In this document: in pieces, positions 1-14,022 of the stretch
Numbering within the stretch: position 1 is the first letter of the stretch
Layout: each line of letters begins with the position of its first letter
Virus record (IMG/VR): IMGVR_UViG_2565956629_000010
Length of the DNA: 26,233 bases
Strand: one strand, 5' to 3'
Origin: a virus
Lineage: Duplodnaviria; Heunggongvirae; Uroviricota; Caudoviricetes
The notes under the pieces: model-generated
What the model was told of the DNA's origin: nothing
What the model saw: only the letters and a program-made list of their open reading frames with translations
The model's database searches: none
Made by a program: the position numbers and the translations under genes

Positions 1-1053
1 TTACGGGGTAATGCCAACCGCTGCCGCCACTTTGTCGCCACTTGGCAGCGTTGCCAGAGGATTGAAACGGAGCGCCGTTTCCAGATGATCCGGTGCCAGA
101 TGTGCGTAACGCATAGTCATTTTTATATCGTGGTGTCCGAGAATTTTTTGTAAAGCCAGAATGTTTCCACCCGACATCATGAAGTGCGCCGCAAACGTAT
201 GGCGCAGAACGTGTGTGAGTTGACCGCGAGGGAGCACGATAGACGTTTTTTCCATCACGGATAAAAATTGAAAATAGCAGTCTGTGAAGAAATTGAACCC
301 ATCAAGCGCCATGATCTCTTCGTAAAGCTCTTTACTGATAGGGATGCTTCTGTTTTTCTTCCCCTTCGTTCTTACAAAGGTAATTCGGTATTTGGTCACC
401 TGTGAGCGGGTAAGATTTACGGCTTCTCGCCAGCGTGCGCCTGTGCTTAAGCATATCTTAACTACCAGTGCCAGAATTGGGTCCTGACGTTTGCAATCAG
501 CTAGTAATTCAACAATCTGCTCATGGGTAAGCCATGCCATCTCTTTTTCTGCGATGGTGAATTTTCGCATGTTCTCCAGTGGGTTCGGATACGACCATTC
601 GCCCAGGCGGGATAGTTCGCTAAAAACACTACTTAGATAGCTTTGCTCCAGGTTAATGGTGACCGGGCTTGCTCCTTTCTTCCATTTCTCACTGAAGTAG
701 ATCTCACCTGTCAGGCGTTTATCTCGATAGTGGGCAAACATTTTAGAGGTTAGATCAGTTGCAAGGGGATTGCCCAGAGCGTCAACCATCAGCAGCAATT
801 TGTCATAGACATGCTGCCCAGCAGTCAGAGATTTACCATGTAGTTTGAACCATAGCTCAACCACGTCTTTCAGTGTTCGACGATCCACTGATTCACCCAG
901 CCAGGGCTTTGCTTCGGTTTCTTCCATCGTGTGACGCTCAAAAGCCAGTGCTTCGCCTTTGGTGGCGAATTGTTTACGCACACGACGCCCACTACGTCCG
1001 GCGGGGTAACATTCGCAAAGCCATTTTCCTGTGGTGAGTTTTCGTACTGCCAT
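1..1053 (-). CDS. int: P2/186-family tyrosine integrase
   Basis: 350-aa ORF. N-terminus MAVRKLTTGKWLCECYPAGRSGRRVRK is, from memory, typical of P2-like integrases. C-terminal catalytic region has HxxR (HVLRHTFA) and a terminal Tyr (MTMRYAHL). Stop codon is at window position 1-3, so the gene is complete and attL lies outside the window. Confidence 0.9.
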   Translation of the reverse strand: MAVRKLTTGKWLCECYPAGRSGRRVRKQFATKGEALAFERHTMEETEAKPWLGESVDRRTLKDVVELWFKLHGKSLTAGQHVYDKLLLMVDALGNPLATDLTSKMFAHYRDKRLTGEIYFSEKWKKGASPVTINLEQSYLSSVFSELSRLGEWSYPNPLENMRKFTIAEKEMAWLTHEQIVELLADCKRQDPILALVVKICLSTGARWREAVNLTRSQVTKYRITFVRTKGKKNRSIPISKELYEEIMALDGFNFFTDCYFQFLSVMEKTSIVLPRGQLTHVLRHTFAAHFMMSGGNILALQKILGHHDIKMTMRYAHLAPDHLETALRFNPLATLPSGDKVAAAVGITP

Positions 1054-1058
1054 AATAA

Positions 1059-1078
1059 AGCCCTCATATCAGAGGGCT
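1059..1078 (-). promoter_or_regulatory. stem-loop overlapping the int ribosome-binding site
   Basis: Perfect 7-bp inverted repeat AGCCCTC (1059-1065) / GAGGGCT (1072-1078) with a 6-nt loop. On the minus strand the 3' arm contains GAGGG about 7 nt upstream of the int ATG, followed by TTTATTATG. Confidence 0.3.
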
Positions 1079-1139
1079 AAATTTAACTGTATGTTTGACC
1101 AGTGGTCAATGTATGGTTTAGTTTATTCAAACAATGCTT

Positions 1140-2657
1140 TTAATCAAATGATGTGGCCAGTTCAATTAATTCAATGTAATTATGTAAGGCATAAAAAGAT
1201 GTATTCAGACCATTCTCTATAAGGGCTCCTTGCAAATACTTTATAGCTGTATCACCATCAATAGGGCCTTGTTGAGATATAATCATTAGTGAATTTTGCC
1301 CATTGTTTTTTATACTTGATTTAAGCATGTTTATATTATTAATAAAATACAATGCAACATCTAAGTAATTTATTAATGTTAAATTTATTTTGGGCTCGAT
1401 CTGTGAGATGAATAATCTACTGCTCGCCGTTCTATAGATATAATTGACACCTATTCTTTGCTGATTTGTATCAAGATTTAATTCAAGGATGGCTTGAGAA
1501 ACACCTTTTAAATTGGAGCTTTGCTTTATCGAATCAGTGAAACGTTGTGCTGCATTTCTTCGACCAATTAGTCCATCTATAATTTGACGATCCTTATCAT
1601 ATATAATCATTAGCGAAATTATAAAAATATAATCTACTTTCTTTTTGACTAAATCAGATTTAAGAATGTCTATTAACCTTTCAGTATTTCGGATTGAGTC
1701 TCTTAGATTTAACCCAAATGCTTCAAATACGTTGGAAATATTTATTGAAAAGTCTTCTAATGTTGCTGTTAGTGGGTATGTTTTTGATGTGATATTTTCA
1801 AAATCGGTACCAATATAATCACCAACAACACCATTAATTAAATCTTTAAGTTCAGGTTGTTTTAAAGTAAATCTTCTATGAAAAAAACGGCCTAAATAGT
1901 CATTTGCGGAAAAATCATTACCGTAAACATTCTTGATTGAATGTTGTAATTGATCTGTGTCAGTAGCAATAATAAAGACAAAATTTTTAATATCGAATAT
2001 ATGTTTAACAATCTCTAAAAGAGAAATTGCATAATCTGGCCTGCATCTGTCTAATTCATCTATAAAGATAAATATAGGACATGAAAAACTATTTTCATAT
2101 GCCAACCTAGACCATAACGTTAGTTCTTTTTTTAATACCTTAATGCTCTTCAGTTTTTCCTGGTGTTCCTTCAGCATTATTAATGAGGCTTCTTTGGCTA
2201 TATCACCTACGTTATCTACTCCTGCATAAGTCTTGATTAGGCCAGATATGATTTCAGGTAGAACACCTTTTGTAAAGCGTCCGATAGCATGGCCGCTTTG
2301 TATCAATCGAGCATCAAGTTTTCCTGCATATGTTTGCAATTGTTGTGACAAAGAAGAAAAAAGGGTTAAAAATGCATCATCAGAAAAGTCTTGCTTCCAG
2401 GCATCAATGTAAACGCATGGGTGTGCATCTTTTATTGAGTTATAAAATCTCTTTATGAAAAAACTTTTACCAGCTCCCCATTCTGCATTAAGGTTGATTA
2501 CCGTGTTGTTCTTTTGCCCCTTTTCCTTAAGATAAAAATATAGATATTCTGCATAGTGTCTCCGATTAAGTTTGTCTTTGGAAAGAATTTCCTCTTCGTC
2601 GTCTAATATAAAGGTAGTTTCTTCATCCCAGTTCCAATTACAATCACCACATTTCAC
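1140..2657 (-). CDS. KAP-family P-loop NTPase (putative defence or abortive-infection effector)
   Basis: 505-aa ORF. Walker A NAEWGAGKSFF; Walker B-like hhhhDELDRC (IFIFIDELDRCRP), which I recall as characteristic of KAP NTPases. GTG start at 2657 with GGAG about 9 nt upstream. Visibly AT-rich compared with flanking phage genes. Only 25 bp downstream of the preceding gene on the same strand. Confidence 0.55.
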   Translation of the reverse strand: MKCGDCNWNWDEETTFILDDEEEILSKDKLNRRHYAEYLYFYLKEKGQKNNTVINLNAEWGAGKSFFIKRFYNSIKDAHPCVYIDAWKQDFSDDAFLTLFSSLSQQLQTYAGKLDARLIQSGHAIGRFTKGVLPEIISGLIKTYAGVDNVGDIAKEASLIMLKEHQEKLKSIKVLKKELTLWSRLAYENSFSCPIFIFIDELDRCRPDYAISLLEIVKHIFDIKNFVFIIATDTDQLQHSIKNVYGNDFSANDYLGRFFHRRFTLKQPELKDLINGVVGDYIGTDFENITSKTYPLTATLEDFSINISNVFEAFGLNLRDSIRNTERLIDILKSDLVKKKVDYIFIISLMIIYDKDRQIIDGLIGRRNAAQRFTDSIKQSSNLKGVSQAILELNLDTNQQRIGVNYIYRTASSRLFISQIEPKINLTLINYLDVALYFINNINMLKSSIKNNGQNSLMIISQQGPIDGDTAIKYLQGALIENGLNTSFYALHNYIELIELATSFD

Positions 2658-2682
2658 TATGAAGTCTCCATGAAAAATTTAC

Positions 2683-3606
2683 TTAATGTAAACAACTTAT
2701 AATAACTTTTGCAATAAACTCAATATCTGTAAGCGAACATTCAAAAGAGTGATTTTGGGATGAAATATAAACTCGTCCTTTAGGTAGTCGAGTTATCATT
2801 CTAAATGAATTCTCTCCATCAATATTTACTAGCCACTTACCATCATGTACATCTTTAAAACCCATTTCACATATTAATTCAGAGTCTTCGGTAGATACTA
2901 CGAATGCATTTTTTAAATTGGAAGGTAGAAAGCATGGGTCAAATAAATATGAGCCATCATTTATTAACTTGCCATTGATTAATACTTTTTTCACTAATGT
3001 TAAAGTATCTTTATTTTTTGCGTTTTTCATTTCTCCTGTACCAAATGAAATCCATTCAATAGAATGGCCCGTTTCTATTGCACACTGCAAAACCCAGTCT
3101 GCAGGAAAAATGTCACGCATGTATCGTGTGGCTAATGTGCTTTTTGAAATACCTAGGTGATCAGCTAATGCTTGGCGCGTTTTGTAACCGTAAGCCTCGA
3201 CAATTCGTTCTATTGTTGCCTTACCCCCTCGGTTAAAATTCATGAGTTTTTCATTATCGAACTTTATAGTGGGAATGTATACTTCATTGCAAAGGCCATT
3301 AACGGCATGTTTTTCAGAATATTGCTCTGATGAAGGAGCAGTATCTGAACCAAGAACTAACCATTCAATTGATGCTCCTGTTTCTATGGAACATATAACA
3401 ACCCAATCTGCAGGAAAGGTATTACGTGCATATCTGTTGGCCATAGTACTTTGGGAAATACCTAGATGATTACATAATGCCTGTCGTGACTTGAAGCCAT
3501 AGGCTAGGAGTATACGCTCAATAACTTTTTGCCCTCCACGATTCTGCATAACTATTGCTTTCAGATCGTTTTTGATATGGCTAAATTTTAATTTTTGAGT
3601 TGACAT
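2683..3606 (-). CDS. CI-repressor paralog with tandemly duplicated N-terminal HTH domain
   Basis: 307-aa ORF. Two consecutive copies of the CI N-terminal domain (RGGQKVIERILLAYGFKSRQALCNHLGISQSTMANRY...FPADWVVICSIETGASIEWL and RGGKATIERIVEAYGYKTRQALADHLGISKSTLATRYMRDIFPADWVLQCAIETGHSIEWI), then a C-terminal domain homologous to the CTD of the adjacent 191-aa repressor (KLINDGSYLFDPCFLPSNLKNAFV...HDGKWLVNIDGE...ITRLPKGR). Confidence 0.6.
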   Translation of the reverse strand: MSTQKLKFSHIKNDLKAIVMQNRGGQKVIERILLAYGFKSRQALCNHLGISQSTMANRYARNTFPADWVVICSIETGASIEWLVLGSDTAPSSEQYSEKHAVNGLCNEVYIPTIKFDNEKLMNFNRGGKATIERIVEAYGYKTRQALADHLGISKSTLATRYMRDIFPADWVLQCAIETGHSIEWISFGTGEMKNAKNKDTLTLVKKVLINGKLINDGSYLFDPCFLPSNLKNAFVVSTEDSELICEMGFKDVHDGKWLVNIDGENSFRMITRLPKGRVYISSQNHSFECSLTDIEFIAKVIISCLH

Positions 3607-3656
3607 ATTTTTTACACCACAACAAATGCTTTACCAAGCATAAAAACATTCCTATA

Positions 3657-4232
3657 TTACTCAAAGTACTTAACTGTTATGCTTATAATTTTTCCAATAA
3701 TTTCGATTTCTTCTTTTTTACATTCGAAAGCCCTATTTCCACCTTCAACTAAGATTCTTCCACCAGGTAAACGAGTGATATCGCGGATTGTTACTTCGGC
3801 ATCAATACTTATTACCCATTTGCCGTCACGAATATCGTTAAACTCTTTATCGCAAATAAAAACGGAATTGTTATCGGTGATTACAAACGGATTTTTGAGC
3901 GTAGATGGTAGAAATTCTTTATCGAAAATATAAAAACCATCTTCCTGCAAGGTTCCATCAGATAATACATATTTAACGACTTCCATAGTATTTGTATTAC
4001 CTGAAGTTTGCTTTGAACCATGTCCGGTCGTGAGCCAGTTAAGCGAGGCGCCCGTTTCAAGTGCGCACTGGATTACCCATTCAGCAGGGAATGAGTCACG
4101 CATATAGCGTGTGGCGAGAGTACTTTTAGAGATTCCTAAGTGATCGCACAACGCCTGTCGAGTCTTGAAGCCATATGCTTCTACCATGCGCTCTATAGCG
4201 CCTCGTCCGCCTTTCTCCAAATTCATGGTCAC
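3657..4232 (-). CDS. cI: 186-type CI immunity repressor
   Basis: 191-aa ORF divergent from the apl-like gene. N-terminal HTH region (AYGFKTRQALCDHLGISKSTLATRYMRDSFPAEWVIQCALETGASLNWLTTG) and C-terminal domain. Size and position match my recollection of phage 186 CI (about 192 aa). Confidence 0.7.
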   Translation of the reverse strand: MTMNLEKGGRGAIERMVEAYGFKTRQALCDHLGISKSTLATRYMRDSFPAEWVIQCALETGASLNWLTTGHGSKQTSGNTNTMEVVKYVLSDGTLQEDGFYIFDKEFLPSTLKNPFVITDNNSVFICDKEFNDIRDGKWVISIDAEVTIRDITRLPGGRILVEGGNRAFECKKEEIEIIGKIISITVKYFE

Positions 4233-4351
4233 TCCAAGTGAACTTTTGTCTTGACGATTTCATTATGCGATCGTATGTTTATGATGTTCACAAAATACAA
4301 ACGATCCGTATTCGTCCTGATTAATCAACATTAAACGAGGAATGTTGCATC
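4233..4351. promoter_or_regulatory. immunity switch region between cI and apl (candidate lytic and lysogenic promoters and operator half-sites)
   Basis: Rightward candidate: -35 TTGACG (4251-4256), 17-nt spacer, -10 TATGTT (4274-4279). Leftward candidate: -35 TGAACA (complement of 4284-4289), -10 CATAAT (complement of 4262-4267). Inverted half-sites GTGAAC (4238-4243) / GTTCAC (4286-4291) flank them. GAGGAA RBS precedes the apl ATG. Confidence 0.3.
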
Positions 4352-4573
4352 ATGAAACCTAACATTTCAATCACTCTTACCACGCCTCATGTGACTATTG
4401 AACGTTATAGCGAGCTGACAGGGCTATCCATCGATACTATCAATGACATGTTGGCTGATGGACGTCTTATCCGTCACCGTCTGCGGAAAGATAAAAAACG
4501 CGAAAAAGTGATGATCAACATAGCAGCCATGACCGTTGATGCGCTTTCAGAATGCAATCTAAACCTTAATTAG
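4352..4573 (+). CDS. apl: Apl/Cox-like excisionase and switch regulator
   Basis: 73-aa basic ORF immediately divergent from cI, the position of apl (186) or cox (P2). Contains an HTH-like segment ([22 protein letters not shown]). Confidence 0.5.
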
Positions 4574-4605
4574 TTCGATTCTGAAATACATCAGAGGCAT
4601 TGACC

Positions 4606-5115
4606 ATGTTTGATTACCAAGTTTCCAAACACCCGCATTTTGATGAAGCCTGTAGAGCTTTTGCACTTCGTCACAATATGGCGAAGCTGGCAGAACGTGC
4701 AGGAATGAATGTCCAGACTCTGCGAAACAAACTCAACCCAGATCAACCGCATCAGCTCAATGCGCCAGAAATCTGGCTGCTTACCGATCTGACTGAAGAT
4801 TCAACGCTGGTAGATGGCTTTCTGGCACAGATTCACTGCCTGCCATGTGTACCGATTAATGAGGTGGCAAAAGAGAAACTGCCGCATTACGTCATGAGTG
4901 CAACTGCAGAGATAGGGCGTGTCGCGGCAGGTGCGGTTTCTGGCGATGTAAAAACCAGTGCAGGCCGTCGTGATGCGATCAGCAGCATTAACTCTGTTAC
5001 ACGACTGATGGCGCTGGCTGCTGTTTCATTGCAGGCCCGTTTACAGGCTAATCCTGCGATGGCGAGTGCAGTTGATACCGTGACTGGCCTCGGTGCTTCA
5101 TTCGGTTTGCTGTGA
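4606..5115 (+). CDS. cII: CII-like lysogeny-establishment activator
   Basis: ATG at 4606 with GAGG RBS at 4594-4597; the ORF-track start at 4600 is a TTG. Gives 169 aa, the size I recall for 186 CII. N-terminus [43 protein letters not shown] contains an HTH and matches my memory of 186 CII. Confidence 0.6.
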
Positions 5116-5122
5116 GGTGCTT

Positions 5123-5323
5123 ATGCTGACGAAAGAACCATCATTTGCATCGCTGCTGGTAAAACAAAGTCCGGCAATGCACTACGGTCACGGCTGGATC
5201 ATGGGTGAGGATGGTAAACGCTGGCATCCGTGCCGTTCACAAGATGAATTGCTGGCAGAACTATCAACGAAAAAACGGGGGAACCAATGGCTATTGAAGG
5301 CGCTGCGGCGACTGTTCCATTAA
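5123..5323 (+). CDS. hypothetical early protein (fil position in 186)
   Basis: ATG at 5123 preceded by GAGGTG. 66 aa, basic, Cys/His-containing. Position after cII. Confidence 0.3.
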   Translation: MLTKEPSFASLLVKQSPAMHYGHGWIMGEDGKRWHPCRSQDELLAELSTKKRGNQWLLKALRRLFH

Positions 5324-5628
5324 GCCCCGGTGAACGCCTGAATGGACTTAATCATATTGCGGAATTAAGAGCGAAAGTTTTTGGCCTGAATATTGAGTCA
5401 GAGCTTGAGCGGTTTATTAAAGATATGCGTGATCCACGGGATATCAATAATGAACAAAATAAACGGGCACTGGCTGCCATATTCTTTATGGCAAAAATTC
5501 CAGCTGAACGTCATAGCATCAGCATTAATGAGCTGACCACTGACGAAAAGCGGGAGCTGATTAAAGCAATGAATCATTTTCGTGCAGTGGTGAGCTTATT
5601 TCCCAGACGGCTAACCATGCCGAATTAA
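5287..5628 (+). CDS. hypothetical early protein
   Basis: 113-aa ORF in the early rightward operon. No recognisable motifs. Confidence 0.4.
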   Translation: MAIEGAAATVPLSPGERLNGLNHIAELRAKVFGLNIESELERFIKDMRDPRDINNEQNKRALAAIFFMAKIPAERHSISINELTTDEKRELIKAMNHFRAVVSLFPRRLTMPN

Positions 5629-5695
5629 CCAACTAATGAAATTCATGGCGTAAACCCGCCAGGCATCCCTTTATCTAAATTCAGGAGAATTGATT

Positions 5696-5929
5696 ATGCG
5701 TAATATTGAAACCCTCACGACTAAAACCGGACTGGATGATGCAGGGCTTAATATTTTACTGACAGAGGCTCGTCTGGAAGAACGCCGGGCAAGGGCTGAA
5801 GCAATGGCAGCTCGCCTTGATAGCTTGGCGTGTCATATCACATCCCGCCAGCTAAACCACGTCGAAGCGGCAGAACTGCTGCGTGTGACTGCTGAAGCAA
5901 TCCAGAACGAAGCGCAGGAGATCCACTGA
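5696..5929 (+). CDS. hypothetical early protein
   Basis: ATG at 5696 with AGGAG at 5683-5687. 77 aa. Stop overlaps the start of the next gene (ATGA). Confidence 0.45.
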   Translation: MRNIETLTTKTGLDDAGLNILLTEARLEERRARAEAMAARLDSLACHITSRQLNHVEAAELLRVTAEAIQNEAQEIH

Positions 5930-6156
5930 TGGCTGATGCAATGGATCTCGTACAGCAGCGCGTTGAAGAAGAACGCCAGCGTCATATCCGTGCTGCCCGC
6001 GCCAAAACGCCGGGCGTATCCCGCGTGCTTTGCATTGAGTGTGAAGCACCAATTCCGCCAGCACGACGTCGCGCCATTCCGGGTGTGCAGCTTTGCATTA
6101 CCTGTCAGGAAATCGCAGAGCTGAAAGGCAAACATTACAACGGAGGTGCTGTATGA
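5929..6156 (+). CDS. TraR/DksA-family C4 zinc-finger protein
   Basis: 75 aa with CIECEAPIPPARRRAIPGVQLCITCQE, a C-x2-C-x17-C-x2-C pattern typical of TraR/DksA-type zinc fingers found in P2-like early regions. Confidence 0.65.
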   Translation: MADAMDLVQQRVEEERQRHIRAARAKTPGVSRVLCIECEAPIPPARRRAIPGVQLCITCQEIAELKGKHYNGGAV

Positions 6157-7010
6157 GCACCATCCTGAAATGGGCGGGTAATAAAACCGCCATTATGCCA
6201 GAACTGAAAAAATACCTTCCTGCTGGCCCGCGACTGGTTGAACCTTTCGCGGGTTCTTGTGCTGTGATGATAGAGACGGATTACCCCAGCTATCTTGTTG
6301 CGGATATTAATCCTGATTTAATCAACCTCTATAAAAAGGTTGCTGCTGATTGCGAGGCGTTTATATCTCGTGCCAGAGCTTTATTTGAGGAAGCAAACAG
6401 GGAGGTGGCTTATTACAACATAAGGCAGGAGTTTAATTACTCCACTGAAATTACTGATTTCATGAAAGCGGTATATTTCCTGTATCTCAATCGTCATGGT
6501 TACCGTGGGTTATGTCGCTATAACAAGAGCGGGCATTTCAACATTCCCTACGGGAATTATAAAAATCCGTATTTCCCTGAAAAAGAAATTCGCAAATTTG
6601 CAGAAAAAGCCCAGCGAGCAACGTTTATCTGCGCCAGCTTTGATGAAACGCTGGCGATGTTGAAGGCGGGGGATGTGGTGTATTGCGATCCGCCTTATGA
6701 CGGTACGTTTTCCGGCTATCACACTGATGGCTTCACTGAGGATGACCAGTATCACCTGGCATCCGTTCTTGAACATCGATCATCTGAAGGTCATCCGGTC
6801 ATTGTTTCTAACAGTGACACATCCCTGATTCGTTCGCTGTATCGCAATTTCACTCACCACTACATCAAGGCAAAACGCAGCATCGGCGTGTCGGCTGGCG
6901 AGAGTAAATCTGCAACAGAAATCATTGCTGTTTCCGGGGCGCGCTGCTGGGTGGGATTTGATCCTTCGCGTGGCGTGGATAGTTCTGCTGTGTACGAGGT
7001 GCGTGTATGA
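6153..7010 (+). CDS. dam: Dam-type DNA adenine (GATC) methyltransferase
   Basis: True start ATG 6153 with GGAGG at 6143-6147; the ORF track extends upstream spuriously. Resembles E. coli Dam along its length: [35 protein letters not shown] catalytic motif ([10 protein letters not shown]). Confidence 0.85.
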
Positions 7011-9421
7011 GTCATGATGATATGAGCAACTCTAGCGGCTTTAACGAGGCCGCTGCAGCATTTTCATGGAACGGCCCGAAAAAGGCCATTAACCCTTATC
7101 TGGACCCGGCGGAAGTTGCGCCGGAGTCTGCACTTTCAAACATGATCACTCTGTACGCTGCCGATAACGAGCAGGAACAGCTGCGCCGCGATGCACTGAG
7201 TGAGCAGGTCTGGGAGCGTTATTTCTTTAATGAATCCCGTGATCCTGTCCAGCGCGAAATGGAGCAGGATAATCTCATTAGTCGGGCAAAGCTGGCGCAT
7301 GAGCAGCAGCGTTTTAACCCGGACATGGTCATTATGGCGGACGTCAGCGCCCAGCCCACCCACATCAGCAAGCCGCTGATGCAACGTATCGAATACTTCA
7401 GCAGCCTGGGCAGGCCAAAGGCTTATTCCCGCTATTTGCGTGAGACGATTAAGTCATGTCTGGAGCGACTGGAGTATGTACGCGACAGTCAGCTATCCGC
7501 TTCTTTCCGTTTTATGGCAAGCCATCAAGGGCTTGAGGGCCTGCTGATCCTGCCTGAAATGAGTCAGGATCAGGTAAAACGCCTGTCCACCTTGGTAGCA
7601 GCGCATATGAGCATGTGTCTTGAGGCCGCTTGTGGTGATTTGTATGCCTCCGATGACGTTAAGCCAGAAGAAATCCGCAAGACATGGGAAAAGGTGGCAG
7701 CGGAAACCCTGCGTCTGGATGTTATCCCGCCTGCGTTTGAGAAACTCCGTCGGAAAAGAAACCGCCGCAAACCCGTGCCCTATGAACTCATACCGGGTTC
7801 GCTGGCACGTATGCTTTGCGCCGACTGGTGGTATCGAAAATTGTGGAAGATACGTTGCGAATGGCGGGAAGAGCAGTTGCGTGCTGTCTGCCTGGTCAGC
7901 AAAAAAGCATCTCCCTATGTCAGCTATGAAGCAGTGACGCATAAACGTGAGCAGCGCCGCAAGTCGCTGGAGTTTTTCCGTTCTCATGAACTGGTGAACG
8001 AAGACGGCGACACGCTGGATATGGAAGATGTGGTAAACGCCAGCAGCAGCAACCCGGCGCACCGCCGCAATGAGATGATGGCCTGTGTTAAAGGTCTGGA
8101 GCTTATCGCGGAAATGCGTGGTGACTGCGCCGTTTTCTACACCATTACCTGTCCGTCACGTTTCCATTCTACGCTCAATAACGGCAGACCAAACCCAACC
8201 TGGACAAATGCGACGGTAAGACAAAGCAGCGATTATCTGGTCGGCATGTTTGCTGCATTTCGTAAGGCTATGCACAAAGCCGGGTTGCGCTGGTATGGCG
8301 TGCGGGTGGCTGAGCCGCACCATGACGGTACTGTGCACTGGCATCTCATGTGTTTCATGCGCAAAAAAGACCGCCGCGCCATTACTGCATTGTTGCGTAA
8401 GTTTGCCATCCGTGAAGACCGCGAGGAACTGGGCAATAACACGGGTCCACGCTTTAAGTCTGAGCTGATAAACCCGCGCAAAGGAACGCCGACAAGCTAC
8501 ATCGCGAAATACATCAGTAAGAACATTGACGGACGTGGTCTGGCTGGCGAGATCAGCAAGGAAACGGGTAAATCCCTGCGTGATAACGCCGAATACGTTA
8601 ATGCCTGGGCGTCTCTGCATCGTGTTCAGCAGTTCCGCTTCTTTGGTATTCCGGGGCGTCAGGCGTACCGTGAACTTCGCTTGCTGGCTGGTCAGGCGGC
8701 AAGGCAACAGGGTGACAAAAAAGCAGGTGCGCCGGTACTGGATGACCCGCGCCTTGATGCCATCCTGGCTGCCGCTGATGCTGGCTGTTTTGCCACCTAC
8801 ATCATGAAGCAGGGCGGCGTACTGGTTCCCCGCAAATATCACCTTATCAGAACAGCTTATGAAATTAACGAAGAGCCGACCGCTTATGGCGATCACGGTA
8901 TTCGTATTTATGGCATCTGGTCACCCATTGTACAGGGCAAGATCTGCACTCATGCAATGAAATGGAAAATGGTTCGTAAGGTCGTTGACGTTCAGGAGGC
9001 GGCAGCCGACCAGGGCGCTTGCGCCCCTTGGACTCGTGGCAATAACTGTCCCCTTGCTGAAAATTTGAACCAACAAGGGAAAGACAAATCAGCTGATGGG
9101 GACTCCAGAACGGATATTACCCGTATGAATGACAAGGAGTTGCACGATTACCTGCACAGTATGAGCAAAAAAGAGCGCCGGGAACTGGCTGCAAGGTTAC
9201 GCCAGGTGAAACCGAAACGGCGTAAAGACTACAAACAGCGAATTACAGACCATCAGCGACAGCAGCTCGTCTATGAACTGAAGTCCAGGGGATTTGATGG
9301 CAGCGAGAAAGAAGTCGATTTGCTCCTTCGCGGCGGCAGTATTCCGTCAGGAGCAGGCCTGCGTATCTTCTATCGGAACCAGCGTCTGAAGGAAGATGAT
9401 AAGTGGCGGAACCTATATTAA
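7007..9421 (+). CDS. A: P2 gpA-like rolling-circle replication initiator endonuclease
   Basis: 804-aa ORF following the early genes. HUH-type motif [13 protein letters not shown], and YIAKYISK with candidate catalytic tyrosines. Start overlaps the dam stop. Confidence 0.85.
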
Positions 9422-9574: not shown

Positions 9575-9763
9575 ATGCAGGACTATTTTTTGGAGTCTTT
9601 GAAGCTCCAGCGCATTGATTTTTTTCTTAAGCTTGTAGCGGCTAGTGAGTGTAGTGATGAAGAGAAGGGGCTGGCTCTGCAGTGGGTTTCTGAATTGACT
9701 GATGAACTCATGGCAAAAATCAGAAGCCACGAATACAACCGCTCAATGGATGTCATCAGCTGA
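9575..9763 (+). CDS. small SOS-controlled protein, possible Tum-like antirepressor
   Basis: ATG at 9575 with AGGAGG at 9565-9570. 62 aa. Sits between the LexA box and the DinI-like gene; in 186 the LexA-controlled gene at this position is tum, whose C-terminal part I recall as DinI-like. Assignment is by position only. Confidence 0.35.
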   Translation: MQDYFLESLKLQRIDFFLKLVAASECSDEEKGLALQWVSELTDELMAKIRSHEYNRSMDVIS

Positions 9764-9773
9764 GGTGACTTTT

Positions 9774-10007
9774 ATGCGCATTGAAATAATGATCGATAAA
9801 GAGCAGAAGATTAGCCAGTCTACCCTGGACGCCCTTGAATCCGAGCTTTACCGCAATCTGCGCCCCCTGTATCCCAAAACGGTAATTCGCATTCGCAAAG
9901 GTAGCTCTAACGGTGTGGAACTAACCGGACTGCAACTGGATGAAGAAAGAAAACAAGTGATGAAAATTATGCAGAAGGTGTGGGAGGACGACAGCTGGCT
10001 GCATTAA
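9774..10007 (+). CDS. dinI: DinI-family protein
   Basis: ATG at 9774 with GAGG at 9763-9766. 77 aa. MRIEIMIDKEQKISQSTLDALESELYRNLRPLYP...KVWEDDSWL parallels E. coli DinI as I recall it (MRIEV...ETWESADDWF), including the acidic C-terminus. Confidence 0.7.
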   Translation: MRIEIMIDKEQKISQSTLDALESELYRNLRPLYPKTVIRIRKGSSNGVELTGLQLDEERKQVMKIMQKVWEDDSWLH

Positions 10008-11180: not shown

Positions 11181-12938
11181 ATGGCACCCCTATCAATTTT
11201 AGAACGTTTACAAAACGCTGCTAACAGGCAAGATTTGGCTAGTATCTTGAATCTTAAAACTGCTTTTCTTACGGATGTTATTTATCGTTTAAAAGCTGAA
11301 ACGCAGTATACACAATTTACTATTCCTAAAAAAAACGGAGCGCCGAGAGTCATATCAGCACCTACCACTAAGCTCAAAGATATTCAACGTAGATTAGCTG
11401 ATGTTTTATATTTATGTCGTGCAGAAATTTATAAAAAATATAATATTAATCCAGTTTTATCTCATGGGTTTGAAAAAGAAAAGTCAATTATTACGAATGC
11501 TGAACGGCATAGAGGTAAAACGCTACTACTAAATATAGATCTTGAGGATTATTTTGATAGTTTTAATTTTGGACGTGTTAGAGGTTTTTTCTTATCAAAC
11601 AGAGATTTTAGATTAAATAATACTGTTGCTACAACGATCGCACAAATTGCATGTTTTCAGAATGGACTTCCTCAAGGAAGCCCATGCTCTCCAATTATAA
11701 GTAACTTAATCAGTGGAATTCTTGATATAAGATTATCAAAGTTAGCAAAGAAATACGGATGCAATTATTCACGGTATGCTGATGATCTTACATTTTCAAC
11801 TAATAAAAAAACATTTCCAAAAGAGATTGCTGATGTTGGCGGAGAGTCTGTAACCCTAAGTCCAACTTTAATTAAAGAGATTATAAAGGCTGGCTTTAAA
11901 ATAAATGATAAAAAGACAAGGGTTTGTTATAAAACATCACGACAAGATGTTACTGGGTTGACTGTTAATAAAAAAGTGAATGTTGGCAAAGAATATGCAA
12001 AAGTAACGCGTGCAATGGCTCATTCTCTTTATAAAGATGGTTCTTTTGTTATTGTTACTGAATCAGGAAAGATTGAAAAAGGTACATGTGCTAAATTAGA
12101 AGGCCGTTTTGGATTCATTGACTCAATAGATAAATATAATAATTTAAAACTAAAGAACGCAAGACAGTTGGAAAAGTACCAAAGTGTAAATCATGGATTA
12201 AACTACACTGCAAAATTGAATTCGAGAGAAAAAGCCTACAGTTATTTTCTATACTATAAAAATTTTCATGGAATGGAAATGCCAACAATACTCACTGAGG
12301 GTAAAACAGACCGTGTATATTTAAAGTGTGCTTTGAAGTCATTGGCGAATTCATATCCTTTATTGTTTAATTCTTCTGATGATAGCTCTAAAAATGAGTA
12401 TCGTGTTAATTTTTTTAAAGCAACTGAAAAAACAAGCTATTTTCTTGACATTTCTGGCGGTGCTACAGACTTCAAAAGATTTATATTAAGATACCAAGAA
12501 CAAAAAAAGAGGTTCGAGAAATTTAAACCAAAGCACCCTGTTATTATGCTTCTTGATAATGACTCAGGCCCTAAAGATTTATTAAATCACTTAAAGGATA
12601 AAGTAAAAAATTGTCCAAATGATGTTGATACTATTCGTAAGGCAAGGTATACCCACATATTTGACAATCTCTATTTGTTATTAACACCATTGCTTCCTGG
12701 AGGGAAAGAGTCTTGTATGGAGGATTTATTTGATAGCACGGTACTATCAACGGTGCTTGATGGAAAGACATTTAATAAATCTAATGATACGGATACAAAA
12801 ACAGAATATGGTAAGCATGTGTTTTCAACAAAGGTTATAAAGGCAAATTGTAAAACAATTAGTTTTGAAAAGTTTAAAGTTATTTTTGATGGTATTGAGG
12901 AAATTATTGCAGATTATTCAAAGAGGTGCAAAGTATAA
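11181..12938 (+). CDS. retron-type reverse transcriptase with C-terminal Toprim-like domain
   Basis: 585 aa. RT motifs: FTIPKKNGAPRVISAP, LLLNIDLEDYFDSF, LPQGSPCSPIISNL, and the catalytic YADD in YSRYADDLTFS. The C-terminal half has Toprim-like EG..D (PTILTEGKTDRVYL) and DxD (VIMLLDNDSGPKD). AT-rich. Length is close to the 586 aa I recall for the retron-Ec67 RT. Confidence 0.8.
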   Translation: MAPLSILERLQNAANRQDLASILNLKTAFLTDVIYRLKAETQYTQFTIPKKNGAPRVISAPTTKLKDIQRRLADVLYLCRAEIYKKYNINPVLSHGFEKEKSIITNAERHRGKTLLLNIDLEDYFDSFNFGRVRGFFLSNRDFRLNNTVATTIAQIACFQNGLPQGSPCSPIISNLISGILDIRLSKLAKKYGCNYSRYADDLTFSTNKKTFPKEIADVGGESVTLSPTLIKEIIKAGFKINDKKTRVCYKTSRQDVTGLTVNKKVNVGKEYAKVTRAMAHSLYKDGSFVIVTESGKIEKGTCAKLEGRFGFIDSIDKYNNLKLKNARQLEKYQSVNHGLNYTAKLNSREKAYSYFLYYKNFHGMEMPTILTEGKTDRVYLKCALKSLANSYPLLFNSSDDSSKNEYRVNFFKATEKTSYFLDISGGATDFKRFILRYQEQKKRFEKFKPKHPVIMLLDNDSGPKDLLNHLKDKVKNCPNDVDTIRKARYTHIFDNLYLLLTPLLPGGKESCMEDLFDSTVLSTVLDGKTFNKSNDTDTKTEYGKHVFSTKVIKANCKTISFEKFKVIFDGIEEIIADYSKRCKV

Positions 12939-12987: not shown

Positions 12988-14022
12988 TTACATATCTAAG
13001 TTATATTCTGTAAATGCGATAATATCTGTACCTAACCAGACATTAATCTCCTTGATCCGTTTTTGCATTGATATCAATTCGTTTCTTACGAATACCTTAC
13101 TAGCCTTTTCCACATCCCCAAACCCCCCAACATTATTAGGCATAATCCCCATCATTTGCGGCGGCACGCGGTGCGCAGCCATCATGTCATCGCGGCTGAC
13201 ATTTTTGATATTCAGAAACTCATCCTTCGCCGCGACCTCTGACAACGGGATAATCTGAAGCCCGTCTTTTTTGCCGTTAGGCGAGTACATAAACAGATTG
13301 CGGAAGTTGCCAGGGCCTTTGGCGCTTTTCATCGCATTGCGGAGGTTGTTCACATCCTCCTGGTTCTGCGCGGCATCGGTCATGTACATGATGAAGCCTG
13401 CATGACTACCGTTAATGTAATATTTGCGGCGGAACAGCGTGGCGGACTCGTTGAGCAAAGCGGATGGGATGGCAGAAAGATAGCCGGGCAGGCCGTAGAT
13501 CTCCTGATTAATATCCGGTTCCATCAGATGAAAAATGCTGCCTTTCGTGAACTGATACGGCTGGGTTGTCATACCGTATTGCACAAACCAGTAGATATCC
13601 AGGTCTAACCCGCGTCGGGTATATTTTGCCAGGGCAGGCTCAAGGGCGATAACTTCACCGAAGCGGTTCGTGCGTTTCTCCAGGTAGGCGTTACCAAATA
13701 CCAGGTAGTCCTGCACAAAACGTGAAAAAGCCTGCTGGCTGAGCAGCGGGTGAGGGATATAGGTACTGGTCAGAATGTTGCACTTTACTGCAATCGGGGA
13801 ACTGTGATGCACGGCAGCGCGGAAGGTGCGCGCCAGTCCGTCAAAGCTGACGGGCGGCTCATACCAACGGTCCATCTGTACGCATTCCACATAGTCCAGT
13901 AATTCTCGGCGGTCCAGAACAGGAACGGGATCGCCGAAGCTGAATGCTTCGGCTGTAGTTTGACTTTTAAGCTGGATCTGATTCGTCGCCGCAGCGCGGT
14001 TCTTCTTACTCTTTCCCATCAA
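12988..14022 (-). CDS. Q: portal protein (P2 gpQ-like)
   Basis: 344 aa, same length as P2 Q as I recall it. Overlaps the terminase gene by 4 nt and is transcribed with it, divergent from the O operon. Confidence 0.85.
   Translation of the reverse strand: MMGKSKKNRAAATNQIQLKSQTTAEAFSFGDPVPVLDRRELLDYVECVQMDRWYEPPVSFDGLARTFRAAVHHSSPIAVKCNILTSTYIPHPLLSQQAFSRFVQDYLVFGNAYLEKRTNRFGEVIALEPALAKYTRRGLDLDIYWFVQYGMTTQPYQFTKGSIFHLMEPDINQEIYGLPGYLSAIPSALLNESATLFRRKYYINGSHAGFIMYMTDAAQNQEDVNNLRNAMKSAKGPGNFRNLFMYSPNGKKDGLQIIPLSEVAAKDEFLNIKNVSRDDMMAAHRVPPQMMGIMPNNVGGFGDVEKASKVFVRNELISMQKRIKEINVWLGTDIIAFTEYNLDM

Follow-up and report, generated by a model that had tools for sequence, protein, structure and literature searches.

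A KAP NTPase of the PDC-S20 defence-candidate family beside a stranded double-HTH repressor in the cI-int interval of a 186-like Escherichia coli prophage: a probable recombinational mosaic

The interval between repressor and integrase of a 186-like E. coli prophage was analysed in a 26,233-nucleotide stretch of viral DNA (IMG/VR record IMGVR_UViG_2565956629_000010), which is referred to as the window. The 2.5-kb stretch in this interval is probably a recombinational mosaic, in which a self-contained PDC-S20 KAP module lies next to a stranded former primary repressor and the two are not partners. An initial annotation had described the same genes as a candidate undescribed two-gene defence module, made up of a CI-like sensor and a KAP NTPase effector. 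On the reading favoured here, this apparent new system resolves into a catalogued single-gene candidate and a by-product of recombination. The features concerned are as follows.

1..1053, minus strand: tyrosine integrase, 350 aa, left border of the cargo slot (Pfam Int_N, 3.2e-32; Phage_integrase, 7.2e-22)
1059..1078, minus strand: GC-rich hairpin AGCCCTC-N6-GAGGGCT just 5' of the int start codon, in the conserved int leader (segment common to relatives)
1140..2657, minus strand: stand-alone soluble KAP-family P-loop NTPase, 505 aa, PDC-S20-type defence candidate of PADLOC
2666..2669, minus strand: GGAG ribosome-binding site, 8 nt 5' of the KAP GTG (read from the sequence)
2683..3606, minus strand: double-HTH 186-type CI, 307 aa, orphan without its own switch (Pfam, 2FJR match, AF2 model, mosaic BLAST, alignments)
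3612..3641, minus strand: recombination scar, a truncated ydcA-family ORF (MLGKAFVVV-stop) where the common cI module meets that of the double-HTH CI (DNA alignment, sequence)
3657..4226, minus strand: resident immunity repressor cI, 189 aa, single HTH plus CI_C, adjoining the switch (Pfam, RefSeq annotation)
4227..4351, no strand assigned: lysis-lysogeny switch; hexamers resembling promoters occur on either strand; immunity type that of L017, not the double-CI type
4352..5115, plus strand: apl/cox-like gene (4352-4573) and cII (4600-5115), right border of the immunity region (Pfam Phage_CP76, 1.1e-43; relatives' annotations)

According to the ORF list, the minus strand carries int, the KAP NTPase gene, the double-HTH CI gene and the resident cI in this order; for cI the ATG of RefSeq was used, as the ORF list itself gives 3657-4232. 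About 2.5 kb of AT-rich DNA is indeed present between cI and int on the same strand, as first described. The GC content is 0.27-0.33 across approximately 1050-3000, compared with 0.46-0.51 in int and 0.42-0.54 rightward. However, the strongly AT-rich block (approximately 1116-3040) covers KAP but, of the double-HTH CI, no more than its C-terminal domain, whereas the two-HTH part of this protein (3040-3606) has a GC content of 0.38-0.40 and a separate ancestry. Because of these differences in GC content and ancestry the cI-int interval is not one uniform insertion, and the description as an AT-rich insert holds for KAP and the CI C-terminal domain but not for the two-HTH part. The statement that cI and int lie close together in 186/P2-type phages needs a similar qualification, since the commonest relatives have a small ydcA-like ORF between the two, which are thus not direct neighbours. 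A convincing intrinsic terminator was not found on the minus strand from cI to int, and Rfam and tRNA scans of the whole window gave no matches.

The mosaic structure became apparent from DNA comparisons with related prophages. Positions 1-1115 are 96-97% identical to many E. coli relatives, and positions 3616-6200 share 94% identity with L017 (cI and the initial 26 nt of ydcA), an example of the common E. coli prophages without cargo, where this cI module is the only one. Positions 3039-3614 are 78-79% identical to the double-CI prophages L004 and L005, while the CI C-terminal domain and KAP form one AT-rich block that is collinear with a Klebsiella locus. The crossover position lies at approximately 3612-3617, and the old pR -35 hexamer TTGACA survives at 3600-3605, in overlap with the double-CI ATG. 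Mosaic BLAST and DNA alignment thus point to a displaced primary repressor left by recombination, instead of the cargo paralogue of CI that had been proposed. The ancestor would have had the order int - KAP - double-HTH CI - switch. Through an illegitimate crossover, the cI, switch and apl of the commonest E. coli relatives would then have come to lie before the double-HTH CI, and the same event would have shortened the ydcA-like ORF and severed the old switch just past its -35 hexamer. Such a tandem order illustrates a route by which illegitimate recombination in the immunity region could yield a two-immunity prophage.

In five diverged alleles int, KAP, double-HTH CI and cI are all intact, and the tandem order is constant despite variation among the int alleles, at 85 synonymous and 28 non-synonymous sites. 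The orphan repressor has 3 synonymous and 3 non-synonymous variable sites in the same five alleles, which is too sparse for judging selection. All 17 carriers of the full cargo are at least 99% identical, and given this identity the tandem arrangement may simply be young. When the exact double-HTH CI protein was looked up, all matches were in the tandem arrangement, and no phage with the chimeric CI in primary position was among them.

The duplicated DNA-binding domain of the CI-like protein was confirmed by Pfam, which assigned two Phage_CI_repr stretches (3.8e-56) and one Phage_CI_C domain (1.5e-25) to the 307 aa, compared with one HTH and CI_C in the resident cI. HTH1 (aa ~22-86) is followed by a disordered linker (aa 89-123), HTH2 (aa ~127-190) and a beta-rich C-terminal oligomerisation domain (aa ~200-306). 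Full-length coliphage 186 CI (PDB 2FJR, 2FKD) aligns with HTH2 and the C-terminal domain (aa 131-302 match 2FJR at 1e-22), in agreement with the Pfam domains, and relatives hold the same genome position. In contrast to 186 CI, the protein has an extra N-terminal HTH, joined through a 35-aa linker that is disordered in the AF2 model, and in the window it lies off any switch and downstream of another cI. The gene is chimeric: its HTH1-linker-HTH2 part is of the E. coli double-CI type, and its HTH2 and C-terminal domain are of the KAP-linked Klebsiella type.

Double-HTH CI is the sole switch-adjacent repressor in phage 4LV2017, in L004 and L005 and in other sampled E. coli prophages, where unrelated genes follow it, and dozens of clusters of 290-330-aa CI proteins were found across Enterobacterales. 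It is a widespread primary repressor type. The count of double-CI prophages by HTH1 DNA is blurred by cross-matches to single HTH domains. Tandem-HTH 186-type repressors appear to be common as primary repressors, and a description of them was not found in the literature searched. A search for second repressors in prophages, judged on titles and abstracts, gave no relevant paper.

In the window, the cI gene and the recombination scar intervene between the double-HTH CI and the switch, which is adjoined by cI, and the double-HTH CI start has no obvious Shine-Dalgarno sequence. In L005, whose double-CI is the primary repressor, both recognition helices are the same as in this protein. As recognition helices are near-identical even among phages whose switch sequences visibly differ, binding specificity is not readable from sequence. 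The pattern GTGA-N8-TCAC, a candidate and not an established operator of double-CI phages that was deduced from three switch regions after comparing ten, is absent from the whole window.

The product of 1140-2657 is a KAP NTPase, as had been annotated: it matches the Pfam profile KAP_NTPase (PF07693) at 1e-45 (156.7 bits against a cutoff of 20) over aa 32-303, and Walker A (AEWGAGKS, aa 58-65) and Walker B (IDELDRC, aa 199-205) are both intact. The start features were also found as reported, with a GTG at 2657, the GGAG at 2666-2669 and a gap of 25 nt to the TAA of the upstream gene; the same CI-KAP spacing of 25 nt occurs in the orthologous loci of Klebsiella and Enterobacter. The protein consists of an N-terminal beta region (aa 1-30), the NTPase core (aa 32-303), a poorly conserved C-terminal domain (aa ~276-500) and a conserved tail. 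Among 75 KAP homologues W60, G61, G63, K64 and I199-C205 are invariant, and the C-terminal 200 aa are poorly conserved. Transmembrane helices in or beside the NTPase domain are frequent, but not universal, in the KAP family. The protein studied here has no transmembrane segment (highest 19-residue Kyte-Doolittle mean 1.43), and its low-confidence insert at aa 129-142 is not hydrophobic. Neither a nuclease, TIR or deaminase domain nor a membrane domain was detectable, and a PDB sequence search with the KAP profile gave no match.

Comparison with PADLOC supports the earlier placement of the KAP gene among defence candidates. The protein matches PDC-S20 (PDLC04959, a candidate consisting of a single gene, an architecture shared by the gene studied here) at 8.2e-78 over aa 20-389, which leaves out its variable C-terminal ~115 aa. 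Two other KAPs, from E. coli W and NGF1, also match PDC-S20, the one of NGF1 over its full length at 2.4e-171. In the literature searched no paper names PDC-S20, and the family remains a candidate. RdrA of RADAR, a KAP/STAND-like ring ATPase, has a similar fold, but the KAP protein shares only 11-15% identity with it and is ~300 aa shorter. Membership of RADAR was rejected, as the neighbours are int and CI, an RdrB adenosine deaminase is not adjacent and PADLOC gave no match to RdrA or RdrB. QatABCD was rejected likewise, the partial match to a QatA-like NTPase (7e-14) being accompanied by no other Qat genes at the locus. The KAP protein is also not PifA of the F plasmid (720 aa), with which it aligns over the NTPase part alone (profile positions 15-261 of 720, 1e-16), and the lack of a transmembrane segment rejects a membrane KAP of the Tmn or EF_KAP type.

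Single-gene KAP defences have already been tested experimentally. EF_KAP of E. faecalis requires its Walker B motif (PMC12632615) and, in contrast to the KAP protein of the window, has two N-terminal transmembrane helices; Reve, from a P4 hotspot, is reported in PMC13586616. EF_KAP, Reve, PifA and the protein studied here are all encoded on mobile elements, and in each an uncharacterised C-terminal region comes after the KAP P-loop domain.

To place the locus among its relatives, 5426 E. coli genomes were searched. Whereas 1336 of them match the 5.2-kb int-cII region, the full cargo was present in only 17, and the KAP gene is accessory. In sampled rows from the 1336 genomes the slot was empty or contained AAA+DUF4276, DUF4041/SNIPE-associated, ATP-dependent nuclease, DUF2971, KAP, IS or hypothetical genes. 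The cI-int interval is therefore a hypervariable prophage defence hotspot, with many unrelated cargos between conserved flanks. A retron RT-Toprim is located in the other hotspot of the same prophage. Cargo that varies while its place between conserved genes stays fixed is also known from the defence hotspots of P2-like prophages, in which, according to PMC13586616, 8% of the defence systems sit between integrase and primase, a minor hotspot; a cI-int hotspot of P2-related K139-like Vibrio phages is described in PMC9122126. The available text of the two papers contains no KAP genes or tandem repressors in the slot of 186-like E. coli prophages and no detailed description of this slot. A literature search for the P2-like prophage of strain E2348/69 gave no match. 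With a catalogued KAP family, tested single-gene relatives and published precedent for the slot, the term undescribed no longer applies to the module.

The proposal that the double-HTH CI senses DNA or the CI state and gates the NTPase, so that both form one defence system, was weighed against surveys of both gene neighbourhoods and appears highly improbable. The two genes are tightly spaced, the CI C-terminal domain and KAP were inherited in the block collinear with Klebsiella, a CI gene immediately precedes KAP in most of the phage-borne relatives examined, and in Klebsiella and Enterobacter, the two closest, CI similarity declines together with KAP similarity. Nevertheless, the CI in these relatives is the phage's own primary repressor with a single HTH, and not a dedicated sensor. 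KAP orthologues (79-38% identity) follow such a CI directly in Klebsiella, Enterobacter, Serratia and E. cloacae (L008, L011, L102, L104). Another gene separates CI and KAP in Yersinia (L014), and in Pectobacterium (L103, 48% identity) neither phage genes nor CI or int are nearby. Among 80 species-representative loci of more distant KAPs, 75 have no CI, int or cII within 6 kb, and the sampled neighbours are housekeeping genes. The KAPs of E. coli W and NGF1 occupy the same prophage slot behind other CI types. Conversely, double-HTH CIs elsewhere precede unrelated cargo; the exact pair of double-HTH CI and KAP was found in one lineage of 17 genomes only, and each component occurs elsewhere without the other. 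A sensor-effector pairing was rejected in view of this lack of conserved co-occurrence, PDC-S20 is classed as single-gene by PADLOC, and no functional link is needed to account for the joint inheritance of the two genes, which recombination at the closest conserved sequence (HTH-coding DNA and int) explains. A related idea is that KAP and the CI C-terminal domain are functionally coupled in the phage-borne clade. KAP would then sense whether its cognate CI is intact or how it is oligomerised, with CI inactivation by the antirepressor of an incoming phage as an example of a cue, and the double-HTH CI would have been retained because KAP needs it. It is kept open because the C-terminal domain and KAP came as one AT-rich block although the phage already had another cI, and we regard it as very unlikely.

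For the mosaic reading, the KAP protein is most likely, judging from its fold and family, an RdrA-like stand-alone defence ATPase that is transcribed with cI. In phage lambda, the exclusion genes rexAB follow the repressor directly in the lysogenic transcript. The KAP gene has the same placement, immediately after the repressor genes in the lysogenic operon as initially annotated, although the proteins are unrelated and lambda belongs to a different phage family. To judge from gene order, the spacing of 25 nt and the absence of a convincing terminator, KAP would be transcribed in the lysogen from the lysogenic promoter together with cI, and the intact double-HTH CI gene would presumably still be part of this transcript. 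The block has a GC content of 30%, however, and in E. coli H-NS could silence it. Acting as an RdrA/STAND-like sensor ATPase, KAP would recognise a cue from the infecting phage through its fast-diverging C-terminal domain; NTP binding or hydrolysis at the Walker motifs would then lead to a conformational or oligomeric change and phage growth would be blocked. The gene represents a soluble KAP ATPase lacking a recognisable effector in the reference EPEC strain E2348/69, in a slot that is predicted to be expressed with the repressor. A positive phenotype of KAP would validate PDC-S20 and provide a minimal model for partner-free KAP/RdrA-like ATPases.

That KAP is not anti-phage, and instead serves lysogeny maintenance, plasmid or conjugation exclusion or another fitness effect of prophage or host, seems unlikely. 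PDC-S20 is unnamed in the literature searched, no effector domain was found, many family members stand alone among housekeeping genes outside recognisable defence islands, and the physiological role of PifA is itself debated (PMC12632615). On the other hand, sister prophages have defence-type genes in this slot (AAA+DUF4276, SNIPE-associated, nuclease and others), the other hotspot of this prophage contains the retron, and other single-gene KAPs defend (PMC12632615; PMC13586616). The RdrA-like fold, variable C-terminal domain, patchy distribution and low GC content of the KAP gene point in the same direction.

As to the fate of the double-HTH CI, it may, and probably does, give immunity in trans against competing double-CI prophages, which have a near-identical integrase and use the same rcdA-side site. 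A milder version, in which the orphan repressor is only a second, trans-acting immunity against competitor phages at the same attachment site, is considered a tentative possibility. Equally tentative is the view that it is a neutral, not yet decayed relic without function in cis or in trans, so that only KAP matters. The loss of its switch and its poor ribosome-binding site are in line with such a relic, as is the short time implied by the identity of the 17 carriers, and the 3:3 ratio of synonymous to non-synonymous sites gives no signal of constraint. Moreover, tandem CI was found in only 1 of 60 rows sampled among 1337 matching records, and this row belongs to the 17-genome lineage. Against the relic view, however, none of the alleles examined has a disrupted ORF, not even those from lineages with exchanged int alleles, no convincing terminator separates it transcriptionally from cI, and both recognition helices are still those of a primary repressor.

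The leftmost 5 kb of the window carry the immunity and integration genes at one end of a 186-like (Peduoviridae) prophage, which in E. coli relatives adjoins rcdA/ybjJ; the sequence is 99.8% identical to that of a prophage in EPEC E2348/69. It is organized as follows:

1-1053, minus strand: int (ORF list)
1140-2657, minus strand: KAP NTPase, 505 aa (Pfam KAP_NTPase, 1e-45)
2683-3606, minus strand: double-HTH CI, 307 aa (Pfam, two Phage_CI_repr and one Phage_CI_C)
3657-4226 (RefSeq; GTG at 4232 in the ORF list), minus strand: resident cI (Pfam, one Phage_CI_repr and one Phage_CI_C)
4352-4573, plus strand: apl/cox-like gene (ORF list, Pfam, RefSeq annotation)
4600-5115, plus strand: cII (ORF list, Pfam, RefSeq annotation)

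The GC content falls to 0.27-0.33 at ~1050-3000. The KAP gene begins with GTG, 8 nt behind a GGAG motif, and 25 nt separate it from the preceding stop codon. Pfam, GC content and sequence thus agree with what the initial annotation had observed here. A GC-rich hairpin, AGCCCTC-N6-GAGGGCT (1059-1078, minus strand), ends 5 nt ahead of the int ATG in a leader that is conserved in relatives; when int is read from the lysogenic transcript, this hairpin could attenuate or occlude its expression. The int-KAP-CI-cI module also occurs in strain 100181 (locus L101), there on a 150-kb record labelled plasmid (NZ_JBRERE010000002.1) and flanked on the left by a serine acetyltransferase gene instead of rcdA; the cause could be another integration site or a problem of assembly or labelling.

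The KAP protein matched the PADLOC single-gene candidate PDC-S20 (8.2e-78), while PifA and QatA gave only partial matches to its NTPase domain. Walker A (WGAGKS) and Walker B (IDELDRC) were invariant in 75 homologues, among which the C-terminal ~200 residues were weakly conserved. No transmembrane segment was found in the protein, and neither an RdrB-like nor another partner gene is present beside it. Single-gene KAP defence has been demonstrated for EF_KAP, where it depends on Walker B (PMC12632615), and for Reve (PMC13586616).

The initial annotation had proposed a candidate undescribed module in which the double-HTH CI might act as a sensor and gate the KAP effector. Same-slot KAP orthologues of Klebsiella (79% identity), Enterobacter (63%), Serratia (49%) and E. 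cloacae (38%) are preceded by an ordinary single-HTH CI of 186-190 aa, the repressor adjacent to the lysis-lysogeny switch of the respective phage. In Yersinia (51%) a 327-aa gene lies in between, and the Pectobacterium orthologue (48%) has asnB and miaB-like genes on either side and no phage gene in its vicinity. In species-representative genomes, 75 of 80 loci (28-44% identity) lacked CI, int and cII within 6 kb, and the neighbours were housekeeping genes in five sampled loci of these 75. In E. coli W and NGF1 the slot holds two further PDC-S20 KAPs (483 and 443 aa), downstream of CI types that differ again. These single-HTH, interrupted or CI-free contexts do not support the sensor-effector pairing; the KAP gene is stand-alone and does not depend on the CI gene. 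Of the proposal, the assignment to defence candidates stands, in a catalogued family; both its kind (PDC-S20, itself a candidate) and the type of hotspot are known.

Of 5426 complete E. coli genomes, 1336 were hit by the 5.2-kb int-cII query and only 17 carry the present cargo, so the gene pair is not conserved core. The slot is a hotspot: some sampled int-cI intervals were empty save for a 63-aa ydcA-like ORF; others held hypothetical genes, AAA ATPase with DUF4276, DUF4041/SNIPE-associated genes, an ATP-dependent nuclease, DUF2971, KAP genes or IS elements. A cI-int hotspot is described for Vibrio P2-related phages in PMC9122126, and 8% of P2-like prophage defence systems lie between integrase and primase according to PMC13586616. 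Loci L002-L005 and L014 (Yersinia) supplied hypothetical proteins of 324, 349, 201 and 327 aa, for which PADLOC gave no matches, and also a 558-aa DUF4041+T5orf172/MUG113 protein; all five are candidates for defence.

Across Enterobacterales, proteins of 290-330 aa with the double-HTH architecture fall into dozens of clusters. Klebsiella phage 4LV2017 and E. coli strains WP4-S18-ESBL-08 and H15 each have such a protein as their sole CI, next to the switch and with unrelated hypothetical genes behind it. The structural model comprises two five-helix HTH domains separated by a 35-residue disordered linker, and a confident beta-rich C-terminal domain; HTH2 plus this domain align to full-length coliphage 186 CI (PDB 2FJR, 1e-22). 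Two-HTH 186-type CI appears to be a widespread class of primary repressor in Enterobacterales prophages (among them loci L002, L004 and L005), and the copy in the window is a displaced primary repressor. No description of such repressors was found in the literature searched; the class and the tandem-repressor scar described below are minor points without an earlier report that we could find.

Module boundaries were obtained by pairwise BLAST against relatives. The Klebsiella int-KAP-CI locus is collinear with 42-3201 (77%), up to the HTH of CI. The two-HTH part of E. coli double-CI genes, with 8 nt ahead of the ATG, matches 3039-3614 (78-79%), and the commonest cargo-less E. coli relative matches 3616-6200 (94%), beginning 26 nt inside its ydcA-like ORF. 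Two short features mark the junction (~3612-3617), at which the old switch has lost all but its -35 hexamer:

3600-3605: TTGACA, -35 hexamer of the old switch, overlapping the double-CI start codon (sequence, DNA alignment)
3612-3641, minus strand: ydcA-family ORF remnant, 9 codons (MLGKAFVVV-stop)

Both are scars left when illegitimate recombination gave rise to the tandem repressor genes. The three modules and their junction show that a common cI+switch module thereby came to lie ahead of an older one, double-CI+KAP. The double-CI gene is itself chimeric, with its breakpoint in conserved HTH2-coding DNA, and for this reason the AT-rich block takes in the CI C-terminal domain along with the KAP gene. 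Their co-inheritance follows from recombination at the nearest conserved sequence, so functional coupling is not needed.

We favour the KAP protein as a stand-alone RdrA/STAND-like defence ATPase, probably expressed from the lysogenic transcript, with the variable C-terminal domain as a possible sensor. The orphan repressor is either a still-active second immunity against double-CI prophages or a neutral relic. Double-CI prophages apparently occur in up to ~350 E. coli genomes and share the rcdA-side site and an integrase gene 97% identical in DNA. Every ORF is intact in five alleles, and the three synonymous and three non-synonymous variable sites of their double-HTH CI gene are too few to decide between immunity and relic. 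The candidate double-CI operator, itself a weak assignment, is absent from the window.

A second AT-rich cargo (11181-12938, plus strand, GC ~0.32) encodes a fusion of a retron-type reverse transcriptase with Toprim, 585 aa long (PADLOC RT-Toprim type I-C, 2.7e-223; Pfam RVT_1, 5e-27). No Rfam family matched the ncRNA expected upstream. The fusion gene is placed after the replication gene (7007-9421) and before an ORF (12988-14022, minus strand) taken from its position as the portal gene; on that reading, this location would correspond to the classical P2 A-Q defence hotspot. Downstream of the replication gene, a DinI-like ORF is located at 9702-10007 (plus strand; Pfam, 1.2e-22).
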